Source of the DNA: Eledone cirrhosa
Taxonomy: Eukaryota
Length of the DNA: 64,000 bases
Reading direction: 5' to 3'
NCBI GenBank assembly: GCA_964016885.1
Contig: OZ024743.1
Span: 340,504,001 to 340,568,000, forward strand
In this document: positions 6,000-61,741 of the stretch, one piece after another
Position numbering within the stretch: position 1 is the stretch's first letter
Layout of the letters: each line of letters starts with the position of its first letter
Made by a program: the position numbers and the translations under genes
Notes under the pieces: generated by a model
What the model saw: only the letters and a program-made list of their open reading frames with translations
What the model was told of the DNA's origin: nothing
Databases searched by the model: none

Positions 6000-7100
6000 T
6001 GAGCAATGAAAATGAAATAAAAGTCGATGATAGATTGGTAATTAGTTCATTGTTTAATTATCGTTTCAGAGGGTTGATTGATCATGGGAGATCGATATAT
6101 AGACTAGTAGGTAATGTTTATGACGCTACCTGTTTCTAGTCACGAAATTCCTCATGTATTGCACTGTCTTCCTCAGAATCACACTACATGCTAATCGATA
6201 TATCGATCCATCATGACCAATCAACCCCCCGAAACGATTGTAAGACAATGAAATTACTACCATGTTGGGTACAGTATTGTTAATGGTGTCTGCATTATTT
6301 ATGTAACGTTTAAATGTATTTGGGTGTAGTTTCATGTATACATATATAAGCCTTTTGTGTCCAGGTTTGTATTCTTCCAAACTGAAAGGAAGTGGGATGA
6401 TATATGGGGGCATACTCTGAAAATATTTCGTATTTAGACATTTCTCAGAGGATTTCAGGCCCTGCAATAGCCAAAGTTTTTCTGTTAAGCAAAGTAAACA
6501 CCTCATTTTTCCTTTCAAATTAAGGCATGAAAAATACAGAATATTCCAGTTAATCATGTATGGGATCCCTTTGTGCTTCAGATATACACGATTTGACAGT
6601 GCTGTAGCCGTCCTCATTTCCTGGTGTTTGAATGATGCGATACGTGTGTAGTACCATTGTTTGAATCGGTCTTGTGTCATACCTGCATATCGTTCTCTAC
6701 TCTCCGTGTGGATGGTTATAGTTGGTATGATAATGGCTTCATTACGACCGACTTGATTTTACATTTTTGTTGTAAAGGGAATTCTTCTTTTATCCTGCCT
6801 GAATATCTCGGGTTTACGTGAGATTAATTTCTATTTGTAATTTTTGCCTTCACGGACCACTGGACTAGCTGATCTTCACCGACTACCCATTGAAAACGTT
6901 CCTATACCTATGTATAGCAGGAACTTTCTATCTAATAACTCTAAGAATTTGTTTACCTATGTGAGTCTTTGCTATGGAGTAGGGGGGAAACACATTGTAT
7001 TTCTTTACCTATTTTTACTTTGATTAATGGCGTCAGGTATTCAGTTAATGGTATCTACGAGTTTGTTCTAATTATCTGGGTGGACATATCTTATCAATAC
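6000..7100 (-). mobile_element. 5'-truncated Naiad-like PLE (GIY-YIG end) with 3' UTR
   Basis: YAGMTQDRFKQWYYTR..TALSNRVY..INWNIL..CLLCLTEK; imperfect inverted repeat 6040-6115 / 6185-6260; candidate HHR 6120-6182 (CTGAGGA..GAAA-CAGG-TA). Confidence 0.8.
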
Positions 7101-14286: not shown

Positions 14287-15177
14287 CGAGGGGTCTTCAA
14301 AAAGTTCGTGGAAAAAGTACACAACTAAAAATCATATGCAGGGATTTTAATCTCAATTCACCTGTACGTTCTCGTACTAACCTGTCATAACATGTTCTAA
14401 CATGAACCCTTAAATGCATGTCCCAAAGCTGTTGCACCGAGATCAGCAGCAAACAAGGGCAGACTTTTCGATGGAAATTTTGAACAAGTGGGATGAAAAC
14501 CCTGAAGCGTTTTTGCAGAGAATTGTTTCCGGGGATGAAACGTGGCTCTACCAGTACGATCCCGATGACAAAACACAATCGAAGAAGTGGCTACCCAGGG
14601 GTGGAAGTGGGCCAGAGAAGGCAAAATTTGAGTGTTCAAGAGTGAGGGTCATAGCCTCTGTCTTCTGGGATGCAGAGAAGATTTTGCTGGTTGACTTCCT
14701 CGAGAACAAGAGAATAATTACAGCTGCATATTATAAAGGTGTTTTGAGAAAACTGACCAAGAAAATCACGGAAAACGCCTGGGAAAAATGCAGCGACGCG
14801 TCCATTTCCACCACGACAATGCGCCCGCTCACGGCGCTCGGCAACACTAGCTATGTTACGCGAATTTTGATGGGAAATCATATGACACCCATTTTACAGT
14901 CCCGATTTAGGCTCATTCGACTTCATTTTATTTCTAAACCTGAAAAAAAAAAAAAAATCATTGAAAGGTACACATTTTCCATCAATTGAAGATGTAAAAA
15001 AAAGCTGCTTTGACATGGTTTAAAACGCGTCCAGTTTTATACAGATGGACTTAAAGGCTGGTATCAAGGGTTGCAGAAATGTATTGATCTCGATGGAGCA
15101 TATGTTGAAAAATAAAAATCATAACTTAAACCGTTTTCCAACTCTCCATTTTCCATAAACGTTTTGAAGCCCCCTCT
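14287..15177 (+). mobile_element. Mariner DNA transposon, internally deleted
   Basis: TIRs CGAGGGGTCTTCAAAAAGTT / AACGTTTTGAAGCCCCCTCT flanked by TA; transposase relic inside. Confidence 0.92.
14414..15115 (+). pseudogene. Mariner transposase catalytic domain (DD34D type), frameshifted, no N-terminal HTH
   Basis: VPKLL, IVSGDETWLYQYDP, SVFWD, FHHDNAPAH (shifted frame), YSPDL, DGAYVEK*. Confidence 0.9.
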
Positions 15178-34485: not shown

Positions 34486-34601
34486 GAGCGGTTTTTACAA
34501 AATGAAAAAACAACGAGATGTCCTACACGATTGAAAGTATAAGGAAAAAAGATGAAATCGAAAATGCCACTGGAGTCTTTTTAAAAATATTTATTTGGCT
34601 T

Positions 34602-34637
34602 CTTTACCGGTTTCGCAGTTCTTGTGCTTTTCAAAAG
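34602..34637 (-). ncRNA. Minimal hammerhead, U3-A8 core variant
   Basis: CTT-TTGAAAA-GCACAAGAACTGC-GAAA-CCGG-TA-AAG. Confidence 0.8.
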
Positions 34638-35592
34638 TAGAATTAAGATGAAGGGTTTGTGGTTTTTCTCGCTTCTGGTTGGAGTCCGAATGTTACTTCT
34701 GTTTTATATGGAAAAAAGTGGCTCGAAATGCTAGGTTTTTAGAAAAGTAATTTGTTTGGTTGATGACTGTCATGTGAATAAGTATAATAATTTCGCGCCA
34801 GTTCGCGTTACAAAGTTCTTATTATATTTGCCTTTAAAAAAAAAGGATGGGTCTCAGATTGTTTTTTTATATGAGTGAAATTTGGTTTGTTGATGCAGTC
34901 ACGTGAATAAGCGCATCAACTTTCGCGCCAGTTTGTGTTTGAATTTCTTTTTACTTTAAAAAAGTGGCTCAAAGAGGTTTTGTTTATGAATGTAATTAGA
35001 TTGGTTATAAATGAAATTATGACTGTCACGTGAACAAGTACATTAAATACCGCGCCCGTATTTTGGAATTTTTTTGTAGCCATTTAAGGAATTTTGTGCC
35101 AAACAAAAGATAATGGTCAAGAAAAAAGGGATGGGGAGAATTGTTCTGGTTCAGTGAGTATGGCTGATGTGCTGGGGTGTCAAAATTCAGACTTTCTATT
35201 GAAATAAAGAAAGTAGAGATATGTATTTTTATTTGTGTGTGTGTGTAGGAAGATGATTCTATTAGTAGAAATGGGGGAGGGAGCTGTGTGTGTGTATGTG
35301 TGTTATATATGTGTGTGGGAGCATGGTTAGCATGTTAAGATGGAGAGAAAAAATATATATTTTGTGTGTGTGTATGTGTGTGTAGGAAAATGATTCCGTT
35401 AGTAGAAATGGGGGAGGGAGTTATGTGTGTGTGTGTGGGGGGGTATGGTTAGCATGTTAAGGTATTAGAGTATTAACGTATGTTAAGGTTTATTTAGCTC
35501 TGGTTTTATTTTCGAATATAGGTGTTATGTGTGTATCTATGTATGTGTCTGTTTGGATGGTTTGCATGTTATGGTGTTAACATAATTGTATA

Positions 35593-38500
35593 TTAAACTA
35601 TATTTAATGCTGGTCTATATTTTTGAATAAACATATTTTCCTTATTTATTCGTATTTGTTCTGTTGTATTGTCAGCGCAAAGATAAAATGGGAAGACTTG
35701 GAATTTGGGTGTCTTATTACTTGCGCATATATCTAGATGTGCACTGAGTGGTATCTGTCTTATGGTAGGGTGTCGTAATTGTTGGCGATGAATTGTCATT
35801 CTGTTTCTGAGTGTGAGTTTAGTTTGTCCTATATAATCTTCATTGCATCTTTACATTTAATGGCATAAAGTAAATTTTTTGATGAGCAAGTGAAGTGATT
35901 TTTTACAACAAAATTTTGTCCTGATTGAAATGTATACGTGTTACCTTCAATGAGGTGAGTGCAGGTTCCACAATTAGAGCGACCACATTTTTTGACAGTT
36001 TGTTGTAGGTTTGTGGTAGGTAATTTGGCATTGGTGAGTAATGTTTTTTAGTGATTTCGGTTGTCTTTTGCTTTTGAATATTTTGTGTGTTTCAAGGCTT
36101 TTTTCATTCTTGGGCCTTGTTTCAATAGTGGGATTTTCTTGTGAATAATGTTGTAAGCTTCCGCATTTCTTGGGTTGTGTGTTGAGATATATGATAGAAT
36201 ATTGGACGTACCTTGAATTTGTTTCTGTTTTCGAAATTCATCAATGCCTATTTTCGAAATTCATCAATGCCCTTTCTATTCCATTATTTATTAGTAATGG
36301 TGGGTACTGTCTTTCGAGCAGAATTTCCTTTAATTCTTGAAGTCTTTTATTTCGCGTTTCATAATTGGAGAAAATTGTGCAAATTCTTCTTGCTAGCTTA
36401 AAAGGGATGTTCGTCTTCATGTGCTTTGGATGGTTGGAGGTGAATAGCAGGTATTGTTCGGAATCTGTTGTTTTGTAGTGTATGTCAGTTTCAATATTTG
36501 TGTCTTTTTTATGATTAAGATGTCCAGTATAGGAGTTGATCTTGGCTATATTCCATTGTGAATTGGATGTGGTTATTGATGCCGTTAATTAAATTTTTGA
36601 AATCATTTAGTTGGTCGAGTGTGTGAGACCAAAGAATAAGACACTCATCCAAATAACGTTTCCAATTCTCTGATAAATATTTTGTGGAAGTTCAATCCGT
36701 ATTTTGATTTGGTGTGTTCATGTCTCTTGACTTCCAAGTATGCCATGTATAAGTTAGCATAAGTTGGAGCGACTTTTGTACCCATCGCAGTCCCCGATAT
36801 TTTCTTGTAAGTACTGCCATCGAAATCAAAAAGTTGTTCTGTAAAATAAATTTTAATCTCTCGGTGATGAAGCTTTTTTCTATTCTGTCAGTTATCTCAT
36901 TGGGATATTTCTCTAGCCAGAATCCTATTGCTTCTAGTCCGTATTTGTGTGGGATCGTTGTGTAGAGATTCACTACATCGAAAGACACAATAAAAGTATC
37001 GTTGACATGTTTGGGGAGGTGGTTTAAGAGGTCCAGATCGTCTCTTACAAGGCTTTGTATGTGTTTGTGAATTGGTTTTAGTAGTATGTCTATAAAATTG
37101 CTTAGTCTGTGTGGGCCCGCTAGAATTGGTCTTAATTTAAGGTCAGTGGGGTATTGTGTGTTCACGCAGGTTGAAGAGGATTCTTTACAGGCATCGTTAA
37201 TTATTTTACACTTGTGGATCTTCGGAAGTCCGTAAAGGTTGCTGGCTTTGTATTCAAAATGTGTTAAATAATCGCGTTCCTCTTTAGTTATGTCTTCCTG
37301 GTATCGACAAATGAATGTGTTTAATGTGGTCATAGTTTTTTTTATTGCTGGTAGTTTTTTACTCTTTCATAGCAGTTAGTGTCTTGTAAGAGAGAGAACA
37401 TAGAATTTTTATACTGTTCAGCATCCATAATGACGACAGTACTTCCCTTGTCCGCTTCCTTAATTACAGTCTCAGTATTGTTTTTTAGTTCATGGATAAT
37501 CTCCCATTCCCTTCGATTCGTGTTGGGTTTGGGTTTAGGTTGCGGTAGTTCATGGTATGGGAAAGTTGTTATGTGGTCACAAAATGTGTCCAGAACTCTG
37601 TTTCTACCTTTTGTTGGGTTGTAGATGCTTTTATTCCGTACAATTGATAGGTCGTTATTCTCCTTGTCAAAAAATTCCTCTGTGAAACATAATTTTCTAC
37701 AGAAGTGTGAGATATCGTCATTTATCTCATTGAGGTTAGATTATTGTGGTCTTGGTTGTAATTTCAGTCCTTTGGAGAGAATTTTAATTTGTTGTGCTGA
37801 GAAGTTTGTATTTGAAAGGTTGATTATTTTCGGTTTTTCAAAATCGGTTTGTGCCACCGGGTGTCGTGGGTCCTGTAGCCTTGGTCTAAAAAAATGATTT
37901 TTCTGAATTGTTTTTTCATGGGTATTATTATATCTAATGGCATTTCCCCTGTTGTTGTGTGGTCTTGTATAGAAATTTCGGACGTATTGAGGTTCGGCTT
38001 GTTGATGGTCCGGGTTGTAAATTTTGTTTCTTTGTGTGGGTTGTGATCTACGATTTTGGAACAGGTTATGTGTGGGTTGGGTCTACGGTTTTGGAATAGG
38101 TTTTGTGTGGTTTGTGATCTGCGGATCGAGTCCTGTCTTGTGTTGGGGGACATTCGGGTTTTTTAGTAGGGTTATAGTTTTGTCTATGGGTTCTGGGATT
38201 ATCGTCATAGTTTTGCTGGGGTATGTTGGACGCTTTGTTACTTTTTTTTTGTTATTTGTTGTGTGAGTTTTAGTTTGTTTTAAAAATGGATTACCTGTAT
38301 GTTGTTCATTTTTGAAATCCATTTCGTAGTTGTTGAACCAGGTGGCGTTTTTTTCCCATCGCTGGAGGGATGTTAGTTCTTCATCCTCACAATTTTCTTT
38401 CCAAAGTTTTAAGATTTTTTCATAGAGTAGGCCTTCAGAGTGCCTTGAGATTTCTGTGTCCATCTGTTGGTCGAGTGACTTAACTTTTTCTTCGTTGGAG

Positions 38501-39000
38501 TTGGCTCTTAACCGCAGCAGTTCTATTTCTATTTTAAACTTTTCTAAGGCCATCTTTTCCCTACGTTTTTGTTGGTTTTGTGGTTCATTCGGGATGGGTT
38601 TTATTTGGATTTTTTGGGGAGGATGATTGGAGTAGAGTTTAACTACTTTTCATATATATCTGCTTTGCCTTTATTTTTTAGGAGATTCCAAAAGGCGAAT
38701 TTGCGGGCTGTGAGCTTTTGAGTCCATATATTGATTAGGGTGTTTTTCACTGAGTGGACATCTCGTAGATTGGGTTCTAATGGTTGTTCCAGCTTTGGGA
38801 GCATTGCTGTTTCAATGGTTTTGATTAATTTAGTTAATGCTGGAGTACTATTCGTCTCTTGGGTATTTTCTGCTTCTTCGTGGGGTCCTTTTTTATAGAT
38901 ATATATTTGGTCCACTTTGTTGGTCAAAATTGAAAGTTTGGAGGAAATCTCTTTGAGTTCATTTAAGATATCCTGGTTCAGTGGGTTGTCGCTTTGTTGA
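35593..39000 (-). pseudogene. PLE polyprotein (N-terminal region, RT, GIY-YIG), disrupted
   Basis: ORF pieces 38643-38927, 38083-38553, 37824-38153, 36692-37333, 35593-35799. Confidence 0.88.
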
Positions 39001-39166
39001 GACTTTGGTGGAATTTTAGGTCTTCGTGTGGTGGGTGTGAATTAGAAAATGAGGTATTTTACAAAATGAAAAAAAAAACGAGATGTCTTACACGAGTGAA
39101 AGTATAAGGAAAAAAGATGAAATCGAAAATGCAACTGGAGTCTTTTTAAAAATATTTATTTGGTTC

Positions 39167-56769: not shown

Positions 56770-58850
56770 TGTTGTTCTTCACGAGAGTCATGCTGCCAAT
56801 AAGAAAACGTACATTGCTTTCGTTTCACTACAGTTTTATTATTATTTATCAAGTAACTATCCAACAGTTGATTAAACAACCAATAGTCTATTTATGGAAT
56901 TGCCAAAGCCCCTTCATTACACGTGATTTTATCAATGAGGAAAAGAGGAAATAATCTGGAAGCAAGGTCGGGACGGAGCGGAGACACTGAGGGCAAGTCG
57001 TCACAGTTCACTGGATTAGCCTCTTAGTATTAAGTATTCATTTTTCCGTCATCAATACAAAACCAACATACACCCCCCCCCCCACACACATACACACACA
57101 CGTATATATATATATATATATGTAAATATATATGTTAAGATCTTAAGAAAAAAGACACTCACACATACACGCACGCCCACATACACACAGACTCATACAC
57201 ACAGATATAATATGCCTTATACCATCCATTAATAGTTGAAATTTAATAAGATGTATATATTGGCGTCGTGACTGAAACTAAGTCACTATATTCGAAAATA
57301 AAATAAAAAGAAACCTTGCTCACTCACACGTTTGCTATATGTTAATGAAATAATATGATATAAGAAAAGAACGTTTCCAATGTATAATCGCACATACATA
57401 CACACACGCATACATTAACCACACACACACACAAAAACACGCACACATACACCCCCCCCCACACATATACATATATATATATGTGTGTGCGTGCGTGTAT
57501 GTATCATAACATGGATTAATCTTCAGTACATTAGTATATTCACTTACTTGTATTCCCTTCAATTTCTCGATATTAATATTGCATTATCTTACTACTGGTG
57601 TCTACTTTCTGGACACAATGTCGCATATTTAGAAAGTCTGTAGCATTATTTGTACAATACTACCGTGCAGTATTATGTTGAAATATTTATTAAATAGCTG
57701 GATGAAAAATTCAATATAATATGAAGGGGGTCACTGACATTAAAGAAAGATTTAAGAAAGAGGAGAAAATAATTAACTTCTTGGATTGCTGAACTTGTTT
57801 TACCATTCTCGTATTCCAGAACAAATTGTAGGAAGATTATTTATTGTGTGCTCTAAGTGGCGGGAATGGCCATAAATGCTATATTGCTTTACTGTTCACT
57901 TCTTTTCTCGAGGCCCTGTAGTTGACGACATGTAGGCTATAGCTTGAATATTACGTTTCTCTTAATCTATTGAGAGCTTCCTACTGCGCATGTAATTCTA
58001 CTTGTGTCAGCGTTCACCCAAGAACATAGGCCGCCCATTCATTACGATAACAGACAGATCACCCAGTTTGTGTATGCCCTCATTAGAGACAACTTATCGT
58101 ATCGTTTTAAAACGCAATATAGATAAACGTTTGCAGGTTTTGCGCAGAAATTTATCCGAGCCAACGATGATACCTTTATGTGCTCACTCGATTCGCTAGG
58201 GATAGAAGCTAAATTATCTTCATTAATTTTAGCCATGGTCGACAAGTCCCTTATGTTATTTATGTAAAAAACAATTTCAATTTGAAAGGACACTAGTTCG
58301 ACTTATTGGTGTATTTATTGAATGTATTCTATAAATAACAGTGAAAATCACTCACTCTAAAAACACTATCATTTTTAAGAAGAACGCAACATTTGATAAT
58401 GGATTAGTATAAAAATAGAATGTCATCCAAAACAAAATTCATAAGAATTTCGCATGTGTGCATGACTATACACTGAATGTGTTTCAGTATTTCTGTACTG
58501 TATATTACACCATATAACTTTATCGTATACTTCGGTTGCTTAGTGCTTAAGTTAATATATATCTTAATTAACTATCAACATGAGCACAAATAATATGCAA
58601 CTGTGTACTTTCATTTCGAGATATTACTATGAGTGATACGGTATATAGACCCCTCGGTGTTTTTGATGATTTATATACCTTCTAGCTTCGAACATCGATT
58701 AAAGATGTTTATCATATTTTCAAGTTTTAGTATTTACATGCCTATACTAAAAATGTGTGAATCTATATACATATTTACGCAGTTTCGGTTACCTCTATAC
58801 TGTAGATATACAGATCTAATTTGATCATATATATATATATATATATATAT

Positions 58851-59521
58851 AGTAGGTCGAATTCGCTTGCACACCGCTAAAGATTCGATTTTACTAAGCC
58901 TCCAATTATATTATTTTCTGCTAGATTTAATAATTAACTAATTAATTTAATTAGACAATTCTGTTGATTGGTTAATTATTTGTGTTTGCTTAATAACATC
59001 TGGTCGAGAGCTTATTCTGAATATTAGCGGAAATTATAATATTTCCTTTGTCTAACACTTTGAATGACCCGCCAAAAACCGGGGGTTATTTCCCTTGTTG
59101 GAAATAACACGTGACAACTAAATGTTCGATTCGCTGATGCTAACTACAACATTTAGTATTTCGCCCCGTTCTTTGGTAGAACGAAATCCCGTTGATGAAA
59201 TGAATCCTCTGTTTGATCATGAATACCACGAGCTTGCCAATTACGTAAGTCTCATATTTGATTTCGGATTCATAGAAACACTTTAAACGTATAACGTTTG
59301 ATTTGTCCAGGTGTATTTTTTCTCAACCTGTTAGTTCTTTCGTTACTTTGGTATTGTGTGTTAGATTTTGCCTACCACAATGTTCAATTTGTCAAGCTAT
59401 TTAAACGTATGTTATTACTCTAAGGACCTACCTTGTCGAGTGTTTTGCTAACTCATTCATAAAGTAGGTAGAATTTGCTTGCTCACCGTCAAAGATTCGA
59501 TTTTACTAAGCCTCCAATTAT
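58851..59521 (+). mobile_element. ~670-bp element with ~60-bp terminal direct repeats in (TA)n
   Basis: 58851-58911 matches 59463-59521; the interior is homologous to 60935-61505. Confidence 0.8.
59185..59320 (+). ncRNA. Extended hammerhead (degenerate core TTGATGA)
   Basis: TTGATGA-A-ATGAATCC..GGATTCAT-A-GAAA-CAC..GTG-TA. Confidence 0.6.
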
Positions 59522-59574
59522 ATATATATATATGTATATATAGAGTGAGAGAGAGAGATAAAGAGCGAGCGAGA

Positions 59575-59944
59575 ATAGAAGAGGAAACACAGGTAAGCAT
59601 TAAAAAAAGAATTCTATCCAGGTATTTACGACCGTTTCATTGGTAAGCGCAACCTTATATCGCTATATTGCAAATAGCAGCCACTCGATAATAACTGTTA
59701 TTCACCTCCAAATTTTCAAAATAATGAATAAGTTACTTGTAAAAGGTTCTTAATATATTTCTTAAAAAACATTTTTTTGGAATAGTATTTACTATATAGA
59801 GAGAGAGGAAAGGGGAGAATAATTAGGAAGTAGAGAGACAAACGGGGATGGATGGAGGGGTAAAGATGGAAGGATTCGTCGATCAGTTTGATTCGTAGAC
59901 TTGATGTCGTCAATTTACTGTGTAGGGAGTTAAACGTTTATAGT

Positions 59945-59994
<50 letters not shown>

Positions 59995-60787
59995 GGGGGG
60001 GGGAGAGATAGAGAGATAAATATATATATATAAAAAAGAGGGAAGAGAAAAAAAGAAGAAAAGAAAAGAGAACAAAAAAAGGGGAGAGAAGAAAAGAAGA
60101 AAATGAAAAAAGAGAAAAGGAATGAAGGAGGAGAGAGGGACGTAAGTATTGGTTACTGTGGGTAATTAAAGGGGTTAGATTCAATAAGAGGGTAGAAAGT
60201 CTAAGAATATGCAGTTTGTCAGGTTGTAGTACGAGGTTAAGGGTTCGATTTGCACTTGTAGTGCGAACACTTTTCTTTAAGTCTATGGTTGCAATAAATT
60301 GATCTTTCTATTTTATTGTTGAGTAACTTATTCTTCGAACTCAAAATGTGAAACAGTTCAAGGTCACATAACCGACAGCTTCTCATACCACTCGGATATT
60401 CATGCGCGTTCGATAGTTTCTTCCACTTCAGGGTGTATTGATGGTTCCCTCAGTTTTTAAAAAATATATTAAGAACCTTTTACAAGTAACTTATTCGTTA
60501 TTTTGAAAATTTGGAGGTGAATAACAGTTATTATCGAGTGGCTGCTATTTGCAGTATAGCAATATAAGGTTGCGTTTACCAATGACACGGTCGTAAATAC
60601 CTAGATAAAATCCTTTTTTTAATGCTTACCTGTGTTTTCTCTTTTATTCTTTATACTCCAAGATTGAATGTGATTTACCACATTCTTGCAAACTTATGGA
60701 GTGGTCCCTAACCGTGCGTTGGAAACCGTCCAAGAAAGTGGCTACCTTAACTACGAACTGTATTACAATAAGCAATTTTCTGCTTCC

Positions 60788-60790
<3 letters not shown>
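59575..60790. mobile_element. PLE-type fragment with ~195-bp inverted pLTR pair
   Basis: 59575-59768 is the reverse complement of 60454-60655. Confidence 0.8.
59623..59723 (-). ncRNA. U3-A8 hammerhead with long stem II
   Basis: TATT-TTGAAAA-TTTGG..CCAAT-GAAA-CGGTCG-TA-AATA; mirror copy 60499-60599 has GACA for GAAA. Confidence 0.72.
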
Positions 60791-60835
<45 letters not shown>

Positions 60836-60862
60836 GTATATGCGTATATATATATATATGAC

Positions 60863-60936
<74 letters not shown>

Positions 60937-61103
60937 TCATAACTTCTGGTTGAGTGCTTAATTCGGTTTAGTCTAAAGGAATTTCATTCCTTTGTCTCAA
61001 ATTTGAATCCACCGCCAAAGCGGGGGTTACCTCCCTTGGAGAAAACCACGTGTCTATAGCGAAATTCACTGCTAGAACATACCCACAGAGGCTAAAGAAC
61101 ACA

Positions 61104-61300
61104 AGACTTGCTGAAGAAGTAAATCCTTTGTTCTGCCGCCAAAAACCATTAACTTTCAGACGCCTGCAAGCGGAATTTGTCGATCTTGGATTTGCAGAAA
61201 CCTAGCGCTGATATTGTGTGCTGTATGTGATGCATATCGTGTGCTATACGATATGTATTGTATATTCCATTCAGTCCCAGCGTTTTGTCCAGGTCAGTCT
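61104..61300 (+). ncRNA. Extended hammerhead with large stem II and III inserts
   Basis: AGACTTG-CTGAAGA-A-GTAAATCC..GGATTTGC-A-GAAA-CCT..AGG-TC-AGTCT. Confidence 0.72.
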
Positions 61301-61555
61301 AATATCTTCTCCTGAGTCCTGTATTTTAGTTGCTGTGGTAATGCGGCTGGATTGCCGATCGCTATATTTGATTTGCTAAGCTGTCTAAACGTATTGTTAT
61401 TACTCTGGGGTACTATCCCCACCCGAGTGCTAAAGCTACATACCAAATTTGCATTCGTTAGCTTGGCCGCACACTAAGGCTTCGTTAATGCTGTACTAAA
61501 ATTTGTATATATATATATATATAATAAATGTAACCTGAGTTTTTCGAACATTAAT

Positions 61556-61737
61556 AATTGTTTCTACTTTAGGCACAAGGCCAGCAATTATCCAGTGCAT
61601 TACTGGTACTTTATTTTATCGACCCCGTAAGGATGAAAGGCAAAGTCAACCTCGGCGGGATTTGAACTCAGATCGTAAAGGGACATAACTATGCTGGAAA
61701 GCATGACGTCCGACCCTCCACCGATACTACCAATCCA
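61556..61737 (-). mobile_element. tRNA-derived Nin-domain SINE
   Basis: A and B boxes plus Nin-like core. Confidence 0.8.
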
Positions 61738-61741
61738 AACA

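Follow-up and report, generated by a model that had tools for sequence, protein, structure and literature searches.

A non-coding retrozyme-like repeat superfamily of Eledone cirrhosa with an oversized, probably self-cleaving type I hammerhead

Two diverged elements embedded in TA runs, found close together in a window of 64,000 nucleotides (the whole stretch of Eledone cirrhosa DNA analysed here), raise the question of whether such repeats carry a working ribozyme, where it would cut and how the repeats have spread. The answer we favour, with a probability of about 0.82, is that they belong to a non-coding superfamily whose extended type I hammerhead likely cuts at GUC^C and whose RNA is likely copied in trans by the reverse transcriptase (RT) and endonuclease of a Neptune-like Penelope element. 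Copy 1 (family F1) occupies 58851..59521 on the + strand and comprises 1.1 units of a 612-nt non-coding repeat. Copy 2 (family F2), also on the + strand at 60935..61505, is a 5'-truncated stretch of 571 nt from a 649-nt unit, and TA runs flank both copies on both sides. An earlier note on this DNA had taken the two for homologous, diverged elements, and their local alignment score of 250.5, against a mean of 109 and a maximum of 139.5 in 200 shuffles, agrees with this. The note had also described terminal direct repeats in copy 1. A direct repeat is indeed present (65 nt, 91% identity, spacing 612), but since copies stop at a fixed mid-unit 3' end and run a variable distance 5', it is the overlap of a 1.1-unit insertion and not an LTR. 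The partial upstream unit at 58851..58909 (+) has the same sequence as 59463-59521, which gives the overlap its pseudo-LTR-like appearance. Likewise, the proposed unit of ~610 nt holds for the family of copy 1 but not for that of copy 2. From the predicted cut to the fixed 3' end the distance is 211 nt in the F1 family unit (59308..59521, +, in copy 1) and 216 nt in copy 2 (61290..61505, +), and a segment of the 59308..59521 type is the commonest short insertion. Between the two copies lies a 197-nt inverted repeat (59572-59768 / 60454-60650), its arms 94% complementary and 685 nt apart. A SINE-like short repeat of extremely high copy number (summed contig depth >1e7) occupies 61528-61740, and the same repeat interrupts several ribozyme copies at other loci.

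Motif patterns were used as queries against the 3.0-Gb genome. A first look returned 3,844 candidates with copy 1 and 2,424 with copy 2 (40 of each were scored). A motif of 20-21 nt common to F1 and F2 has 2,166 exact matches (control 0); a third clade, queried by its 3'-end motif, gave 5,065 (control 0), and a pattern joining the core to a pseudoknot strand gave 3,149 (control 10). The superfamily thus numbers thousands of copies in TA runs. Its units measure 580-650 nt and have no long ORF, the longest ATG ORF being 54 aa in the F1 unit and 49 aa in the F2 unit. The copies are dispersed, share a 3' end that is fixed at mid-unit and passes into (TA)n, vary in 5' extent and lack poly(A), and because their 5' extent often reaches the preceding unit they form head-to-tail partial tandems. 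Most range from less than one unit to 1.5 units; one locus (L288) is a tandem array of seven units. In a set of 193 distinct insertions (210 loci), a TA run is found at the 3' junction of 172 and at the 5' junction of 135. The superfamily combines a non-coding unit, one type I hammerhead and head-to-tail repeats, as expected of a non-LTR retrozyme, with the fixed 3' end, variable 5' truncation, pseudo-LTR tandems and microsatellite target expected of a non-autonomous Penelope-like element. As judged from its units and insertions, it is a non-LTR retrozyme or non-autonomous Penelope-like element of a new type, with an oversized type I hammerhead. A plant-type LTR retrozyme, with type III hammerheads and true LTRs, was excluded because the topology is type I and the terminal repeat is a unit overlap of variable length. 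A tRNA origin was rejected as well, ARAGORN having detected no tRNA gene in the units, and an A-box-like motif was considered and set aside; the units contain 3-4 runs of at least four T. When successive units were compared for descent from the same template, a unit's own partner was its best match in 5 of 19 F1 cases and 4 of 8 F2 cases. In one subfamily (L226, L292, L294, L295) a (TA)n run lies inside the element, ~10 nt downstream of where the cut is predicted, and some copies of this subfamily end or are interrupted there.

The central proposal of the earlier note, a 130-200-nt hammerhead in a non-coding retrozyme-like family, was borne out: we find extended type I hammerheads of 134 nt in copy 1 (59179..59312, +) and 199 nt in copy 2 (61097..61295, +). 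The parts of the copy 1 ribozyme are a pseudoknot (59179-83/59210-14), stem I (59187-91/59308-12), the core (59192-99, with U3 and G8), stem II (59200-07/59266-73), GAAAC at 59275-79 and the predicted cleavage triplet GUC at 59305..59307 (+), the cut falling after 59307. Those of copy 2 are a pseudoknot (61097-101/61129-33), stem I (61105-10/61290-95), the core (61111-18, with C3 and G8), stem II (61119-26/61188-95), GAAAC at 61197-201, a long stem III hairpin (61202-86) and the predicted triplet GUC at 61287..61289 (+), with the cut after 61289. The fold was assessed in an alignment of 28 ribozyme regions that covers the subfamilies and includes both window copies; these rows are related, so that covariation counts overstate the number of independent events. 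Stem I, formed by the strand directly 5' of the core and the strand after the GUC, is paired in 92.7% of cells, and its first, core-adjacent pair is formed in 27 of the 28 rows. Stem II has 8 bp and a ~60-nt extension, with two-sided changes at seven of the eight pairs, and the first two pairs of stem III hold in 28 and 26 rows, respectively. An additional helix within the stem II insert is paired in 92.1% of cells. A pseudoknot of 5 bp is a likely component of the modelled structure; 79.3% of its cells are paired, and two-sided changes in it are few. None of 500 shuffles reached the covariation score of the fold. U4, G5, A6, A9, G12, A13, A14, A15.1 and U16.1 are invariant in the 28 rows, and C17 is kept in at least 90%. 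Stems I and III abut the core, while stem II is separated from it by an A·A mismatch (10.1/11.1). The 3-8 pair is kept in 27 rows (U-A 16, U-G 10, C-G 1); among 111 matches a U3·G8 wobble occurs in 51 and C-A at 3-8 in one. On this model the ribozyme is a type I hammerhead with stem I abutting the core, predicted to cut at GUC^CAGG. Its activity could be reduced by two features foreign to the canonical core, the A10.1·A11.1 mismatch and the U3·G8 wobble. Copy 1 is likely impaired, given its private changes in stem I and the pseudoknot (C59190 and T59214); copy 2 has C3-G8 and intact helices. The stem II, the A/A opposition and the ~60-nt insert (58 and 61 nt) of the earlier note are all retained in this fold, inner stem III hairpins are present in both copies, and the motifs that the note quoted all occur where it had put them. 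Its expectation that the ribozyme would escape standard searches was also correct. Rfam gave no match at gathering score in the 64-kb window, and at E<=10 over 58700-61700 it returned no ribozyme, the hits being confined to TA-repeat microRNA models and other weak matches due to chance. A loose descriptor picked up three further minimal-hammerhead-like motifs in the window, at ~34049 (+), ~5710 (-) and ~40522 (-), with C3-G8 or C3-U/G cores.

The positions at which genomic copies begin bear on whether the RNA is cut. Our F1/F2 set came from the first 100 of the 2,166 shared-motif matches, which yielded 90 loci and 89 insertions, the rest being tandem mates or loci already sampled. Of 71 first-pass copies, 53 reach the cut site, and 27 of these end within 0..+25 of it. 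The density of ends per 1000 nt is 26.5 at 0..+25 and 4.3 downstream, while on the upstream side it is 1.5 in the nearest 26 nt and 3.7 beyond them; the 0..+25 interval was first chosen post hoc, and p is about 1e-10 as the best of all intervals scanned. Among the 193 distinct insertions no end falls at -30..-11, two fall at -10..-1 and 48 at 0..+19, with 10, 11, 17 and 10 in successive 5-nt bins. The third clade, whose 70 loci (66 insertions) were chosen by 3'-end motif, provides an out-of-sample case: 17 of 46 copies stop at 0..+12, three at -10..-4 and none at -53..-11 (in a first pass with shorter references, 16 of 43 stopped at the site). By type of 3-8 core, with few copies in each, the fraction stopping is 5/14 for U-A, 16/30 for U-G and 6/9 for C-G. 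The stop fraction is higher at the extended ribozyme than at the minimal hammerhead of a Neptune-like family (27/53 vs 9/68, or 51% vs 13%; Fisher p 8e-6), although such fractions are not cleavage yields, because religation or template jumps would hide cuts. Since copy starts pile up exactly at the predicted cut, the RNA likely cuts itself in the cell. The genomic 5' ends thereby suggest, as evidence at the population level, that the cut sets the template's 5' end. Four insertions (L300, L338, L431, L176) start exactly 4 nt upstream of the predicted cut, and these may record a jump to the RNA's 3' terminus and subsequent abortion. A search for a transcription-start pile-up in the non-coding families showed no more than a mild excess of 5' ends near a conserved motif.

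The pile-up could also arise if the hammerhead were conserved but did not cut, and the reverse transcriptase stalled at the 3' foot of the fold or at a bound protein; we consider this improbable. The first helix that the enzyme would meet is the weak stem I of 5-6 bp, and the strong helices come further upstream, in a stretch poor in ends. It is true that the A·A and U·G positions are non-canonical and that a small number of ends fall 4-10 nt upstream of the cut site, both of which would suit stalling, and Frangieh et al. (PMC11167929) reported that insertion in vitro has no need of cleavage and that no reads end at the site. However, the edge is identical in F1, with a weak stem III, and F2, with a strong one, and it recurs at the minimal hammerhead of Neptune-like family 1, which has almost no stem III. 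Moreover, position 7 varies while the catalytic residues stay invariant or nearly so, which also argues for cleavage over stalling.

A second alternative concerns the register. The earlier note read stem III as ACAC/GTGT in copy 1 and ACCT/AGGT in copy 2 and put the cut at GUC 61293-61295 (GUA 59313-59315 in copy 1). The complementary strands exist, but they are not in the catalytic register and make use of the strand that belongs to stem I, and both fold and site were off by 6-8 nt. We place the cut after GUC 61287-61289 and GUC 59305-59307 because of the covariation and the edge of the 5'-end pile-up. That the earlier register (stem III as ACCU/AGGU or ACAC/GUGU, with a cut 6-8 nt further 3') is the active one seems to us very improbable. 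In its helix 84.8% of cells are paired and one pair covaries (C-G 11, U-A 11), and the next nucleotide is A, C or U in every clade, yet this register leaves no stem I adjoining the core: the core-adjacent pair forms in 3 of 28 sequences when tested with a stem I that we derived from copy 2, and the column count for this register does not credit the 2-nt-shifted register of the F1 rows. Calculated without the pseudoknot, its energy is lower in 8 rows, window copy 1 among them; the corrected fold is lower in 20, and for the F1 medoid it is also the free MFE structure. The earlier site and the positions after it account for many ends, but these later ends can be explained by a join at the first TA microhomology, while 10 of the 193 ends, at 0..+4 of the corrected site, lie upstream of the earlier one and the edge at the corrected site is sharp. 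We prefer to read the pairing as an inactive fold that competes with the active one; every clade can form it, and, speculatively, it may be an off-state of the ribozyme. The construct proposed in the note, 61095-61310, does include the whole copy 2 ribozyme.

With cleavage at GUC^C as the preferred reading of the 5' ends, the next question is which enzyme copies the RNA. The window contains a broken Neptune-like element (34600-39050, -), with RT fragments at 36692-39041 and a U3-A8 minimal hammerhead near 34634. Two further stretches on the - strand (96-2396 and 6126-6758) we take, from their motifs, to be fragments of another element of the RT + GIY-YIG type, although Pfam had no hit on the pieces that were submitted; a 191-aa frame at 14414-14989 (+) resembles a fragment of a mariner-type transposase and may be one. 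Pfam found nothing in six ORF fragments of the window. Traced from a window fragment, one family has intact 775-aa RT + GIY-YIG ORFs in 12 of 12 fetched loci. The ORF runs from an RT domain (RVT_1, at E 1.3e-6 slightly below the curated cut-off) through a CxxC linker to GIY-YIG, and we call it Neptune-like because of this domain order and the description in PMC8557442. In Neptune-like family 1 the fixed end in (TA)n follows 141-156 nt after a minimal hammerhead with a U3-A8 core, and the family's 3'-end motif has 7,455 exact matches in the genome. Neptune-like family 2 carries a different minimal hammerhead, with a U3-A8 core and U·U or U·A as the first stem II pair, and its spacing of 192-215 nt (21 measured) is close to the 211 nt of F1 and 216 nt of F2. 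At 70 loci of family 1, 9 of 68 copies stop at 0..+21 of the cut site and none at -26..-1. Of the 70 copies at these loci (L433-L502), 37 start 57-75 nt upstream of the minimal hammerhead cut, often joined to an inverted piece, and these -57..-75 ends likely mark a transcription start in the pseudo-LTR. Target, layout and U3-A8 core are common to the Neptune-like elements and the non-coding superfamily within the same genome. The assignment of the partner is circumstantial, because blastn of the F1 and F2 units against 42 loci of one Neptune-like family gave no nucleotide similarity and no ORF-bearing autonomous element with the extended ribozyme was found among the loci examined. Neptune-like fragments upstream of an extended ribozyme at L296 and L300 were discarded as nested neighbours with minimal hammerheads of their own. 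Chimeras with Neptune-like ends were likewise dropped as proof of partnership: two of four candidates are explained by an alternative Neptune end, and two remain. At L189:1897-1936 and L300:3687-3791 the 5' ends of non-coding copies are joined directly, on the same strand, to incomplete Neptune-like pseudo-LTR pieces, and these fusions are possible template switches. A satellite or SINE-like family spread by unequal crossover or by a LINE, without a Penelope-like partner, would suit the seven-unit tandem and the lack of homology to the Neptune-like ends tested, but it has very little probability in view of the dispersed copies with a fixed mid-unit end, partial upstream unit and 3' TA run in place of poly(A), the absence of a tRNA gene, and a layout that is that of the Neptune-like elements in the same genome.

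If the RNA is cut by its hammerhead and copied by a Neptune-like enzyme, as we favour, multi-unit loci would be transcribed and the transcripts cut at GUC^C into unit-length pieces. The partner enzyme would nick (TA)n and prime internally, ~211-216 nt downstream of the cut, at a point where the unit continues with TAT, which could base-pair with the target. Of the events that get as far as the RNA's cut 5' end, about half would stop there and leave inserts of ~200 nt; the remainder would cross the site by way of an uncut, religated or circular, or re-engaged template and give copies of up to several units. With its long stem III the ribozyme would be able to act as a monomer, whereas the minimal hammerheads of animal Penelope-like elements depend on dimers. 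A more elaborate scenario, which we offer tentatively and regard as rather doubtful, would have a superfamily of viroid-sized circular RNAs (580-650 nt) with >7,000 genomic units and a monomer-active hammerhead with a multi-helix stem II domain. In it an off-switch pairing would keep the circle closed, the RNA would parasitise Neptune through internal priming and rolling reverse transcription, and the 5'-end record would be a read-out of cleavage in vivo.

The role of the hammerhead in Penelope-like elements is described as unclear in Craig et al. 2021 (PMC8557442), and for an anole Penelope-like element in vitro, according to Frangieh et al. 2024 (PMC11167929), cleavage was dispensable. In our data three repeat clades and an autonomous family have 5' ends at the predicted cut, which suggests that the cleaved RNA is a real germ-line template. 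This 5'-end pattern makes the role of cleavage in Penelope-like retrotransposition directly testable. No description of the F1/F2 family or of the ribozyme architecture was found in the mainly open-access literature searched. The supplements of the 2014, 2020 and 2021 papers cited here list further hammerhead families, possibly including similar variants.

Like the animal non-LTR retrozymes (Cervera & de la Pena 2020, PMC7229834; Li, Clavereau & Pollet 2026, bioRxiv 10.64898/2026.07.22.740005), the superfamily is made up of repeats that neither code nor are autonomous, stand head to tail, have a single type I hammerhead in each unit and are proposed to depend on Penelope-like elements, and the F1 and F2 unit sizes fall within the 51-972 bp range given in the latter work. 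Unlike the retrozymes described there, whose ribozymes are canonical or minimal, it has a ribozyme that measures 134-199 nt, is extended in stems II and III and shows the A·A mismatch and mostly U3 cores; its copies are mostly dispersed, of less than one to 1.5 units, sit in (TA)n and have their 3' end fixed at mid-unit. With the minimal hammerheads of Penelope pseudo-LTRs (Cervera & de la Pena 2014, PMC4209133) it shares a helix II of 7-8 bp, a helix I of 4-5 bp, an additional nucleotide at stem II's 5' end and the U3-A8 core variant. It differs from them in the long helix III, with its predicted monomer activity, the ~60-nt structured extension of helix II, the predicted pseudoknot, the second unpaired A before G12 and the lack of an ORF. 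Pseudo-LTR partial tandems and microsatellite or AT-rich targets are also features of Neptune and Poseidon elements (PMC8557442; PMC11167929), as is the start of reverse transcription inside the RNA downstream of the hammerhead, which we propose for F1 and F2; unlike these elements, the superfamily has no RT-EN ORF, and its genomic 5' ends mark the ribozyme site. Finally, in pseudoknot-stabilised hammerheads (Perreault et al. 2011, PMC3088659) the flank of stem I contacts stem II through base pairs, as is predicted here, and U3-A8 covariation occurs naturally as well. In our case the contact runs through an internal loop of the long stem II and 10.1-11.1 is A·A, whereas U·U is the mismatch reported there as tolerated at that position. 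An architecture that escapes Rfam and would fail the core filters of that study suggests that large animal genomes may hold many more such families.
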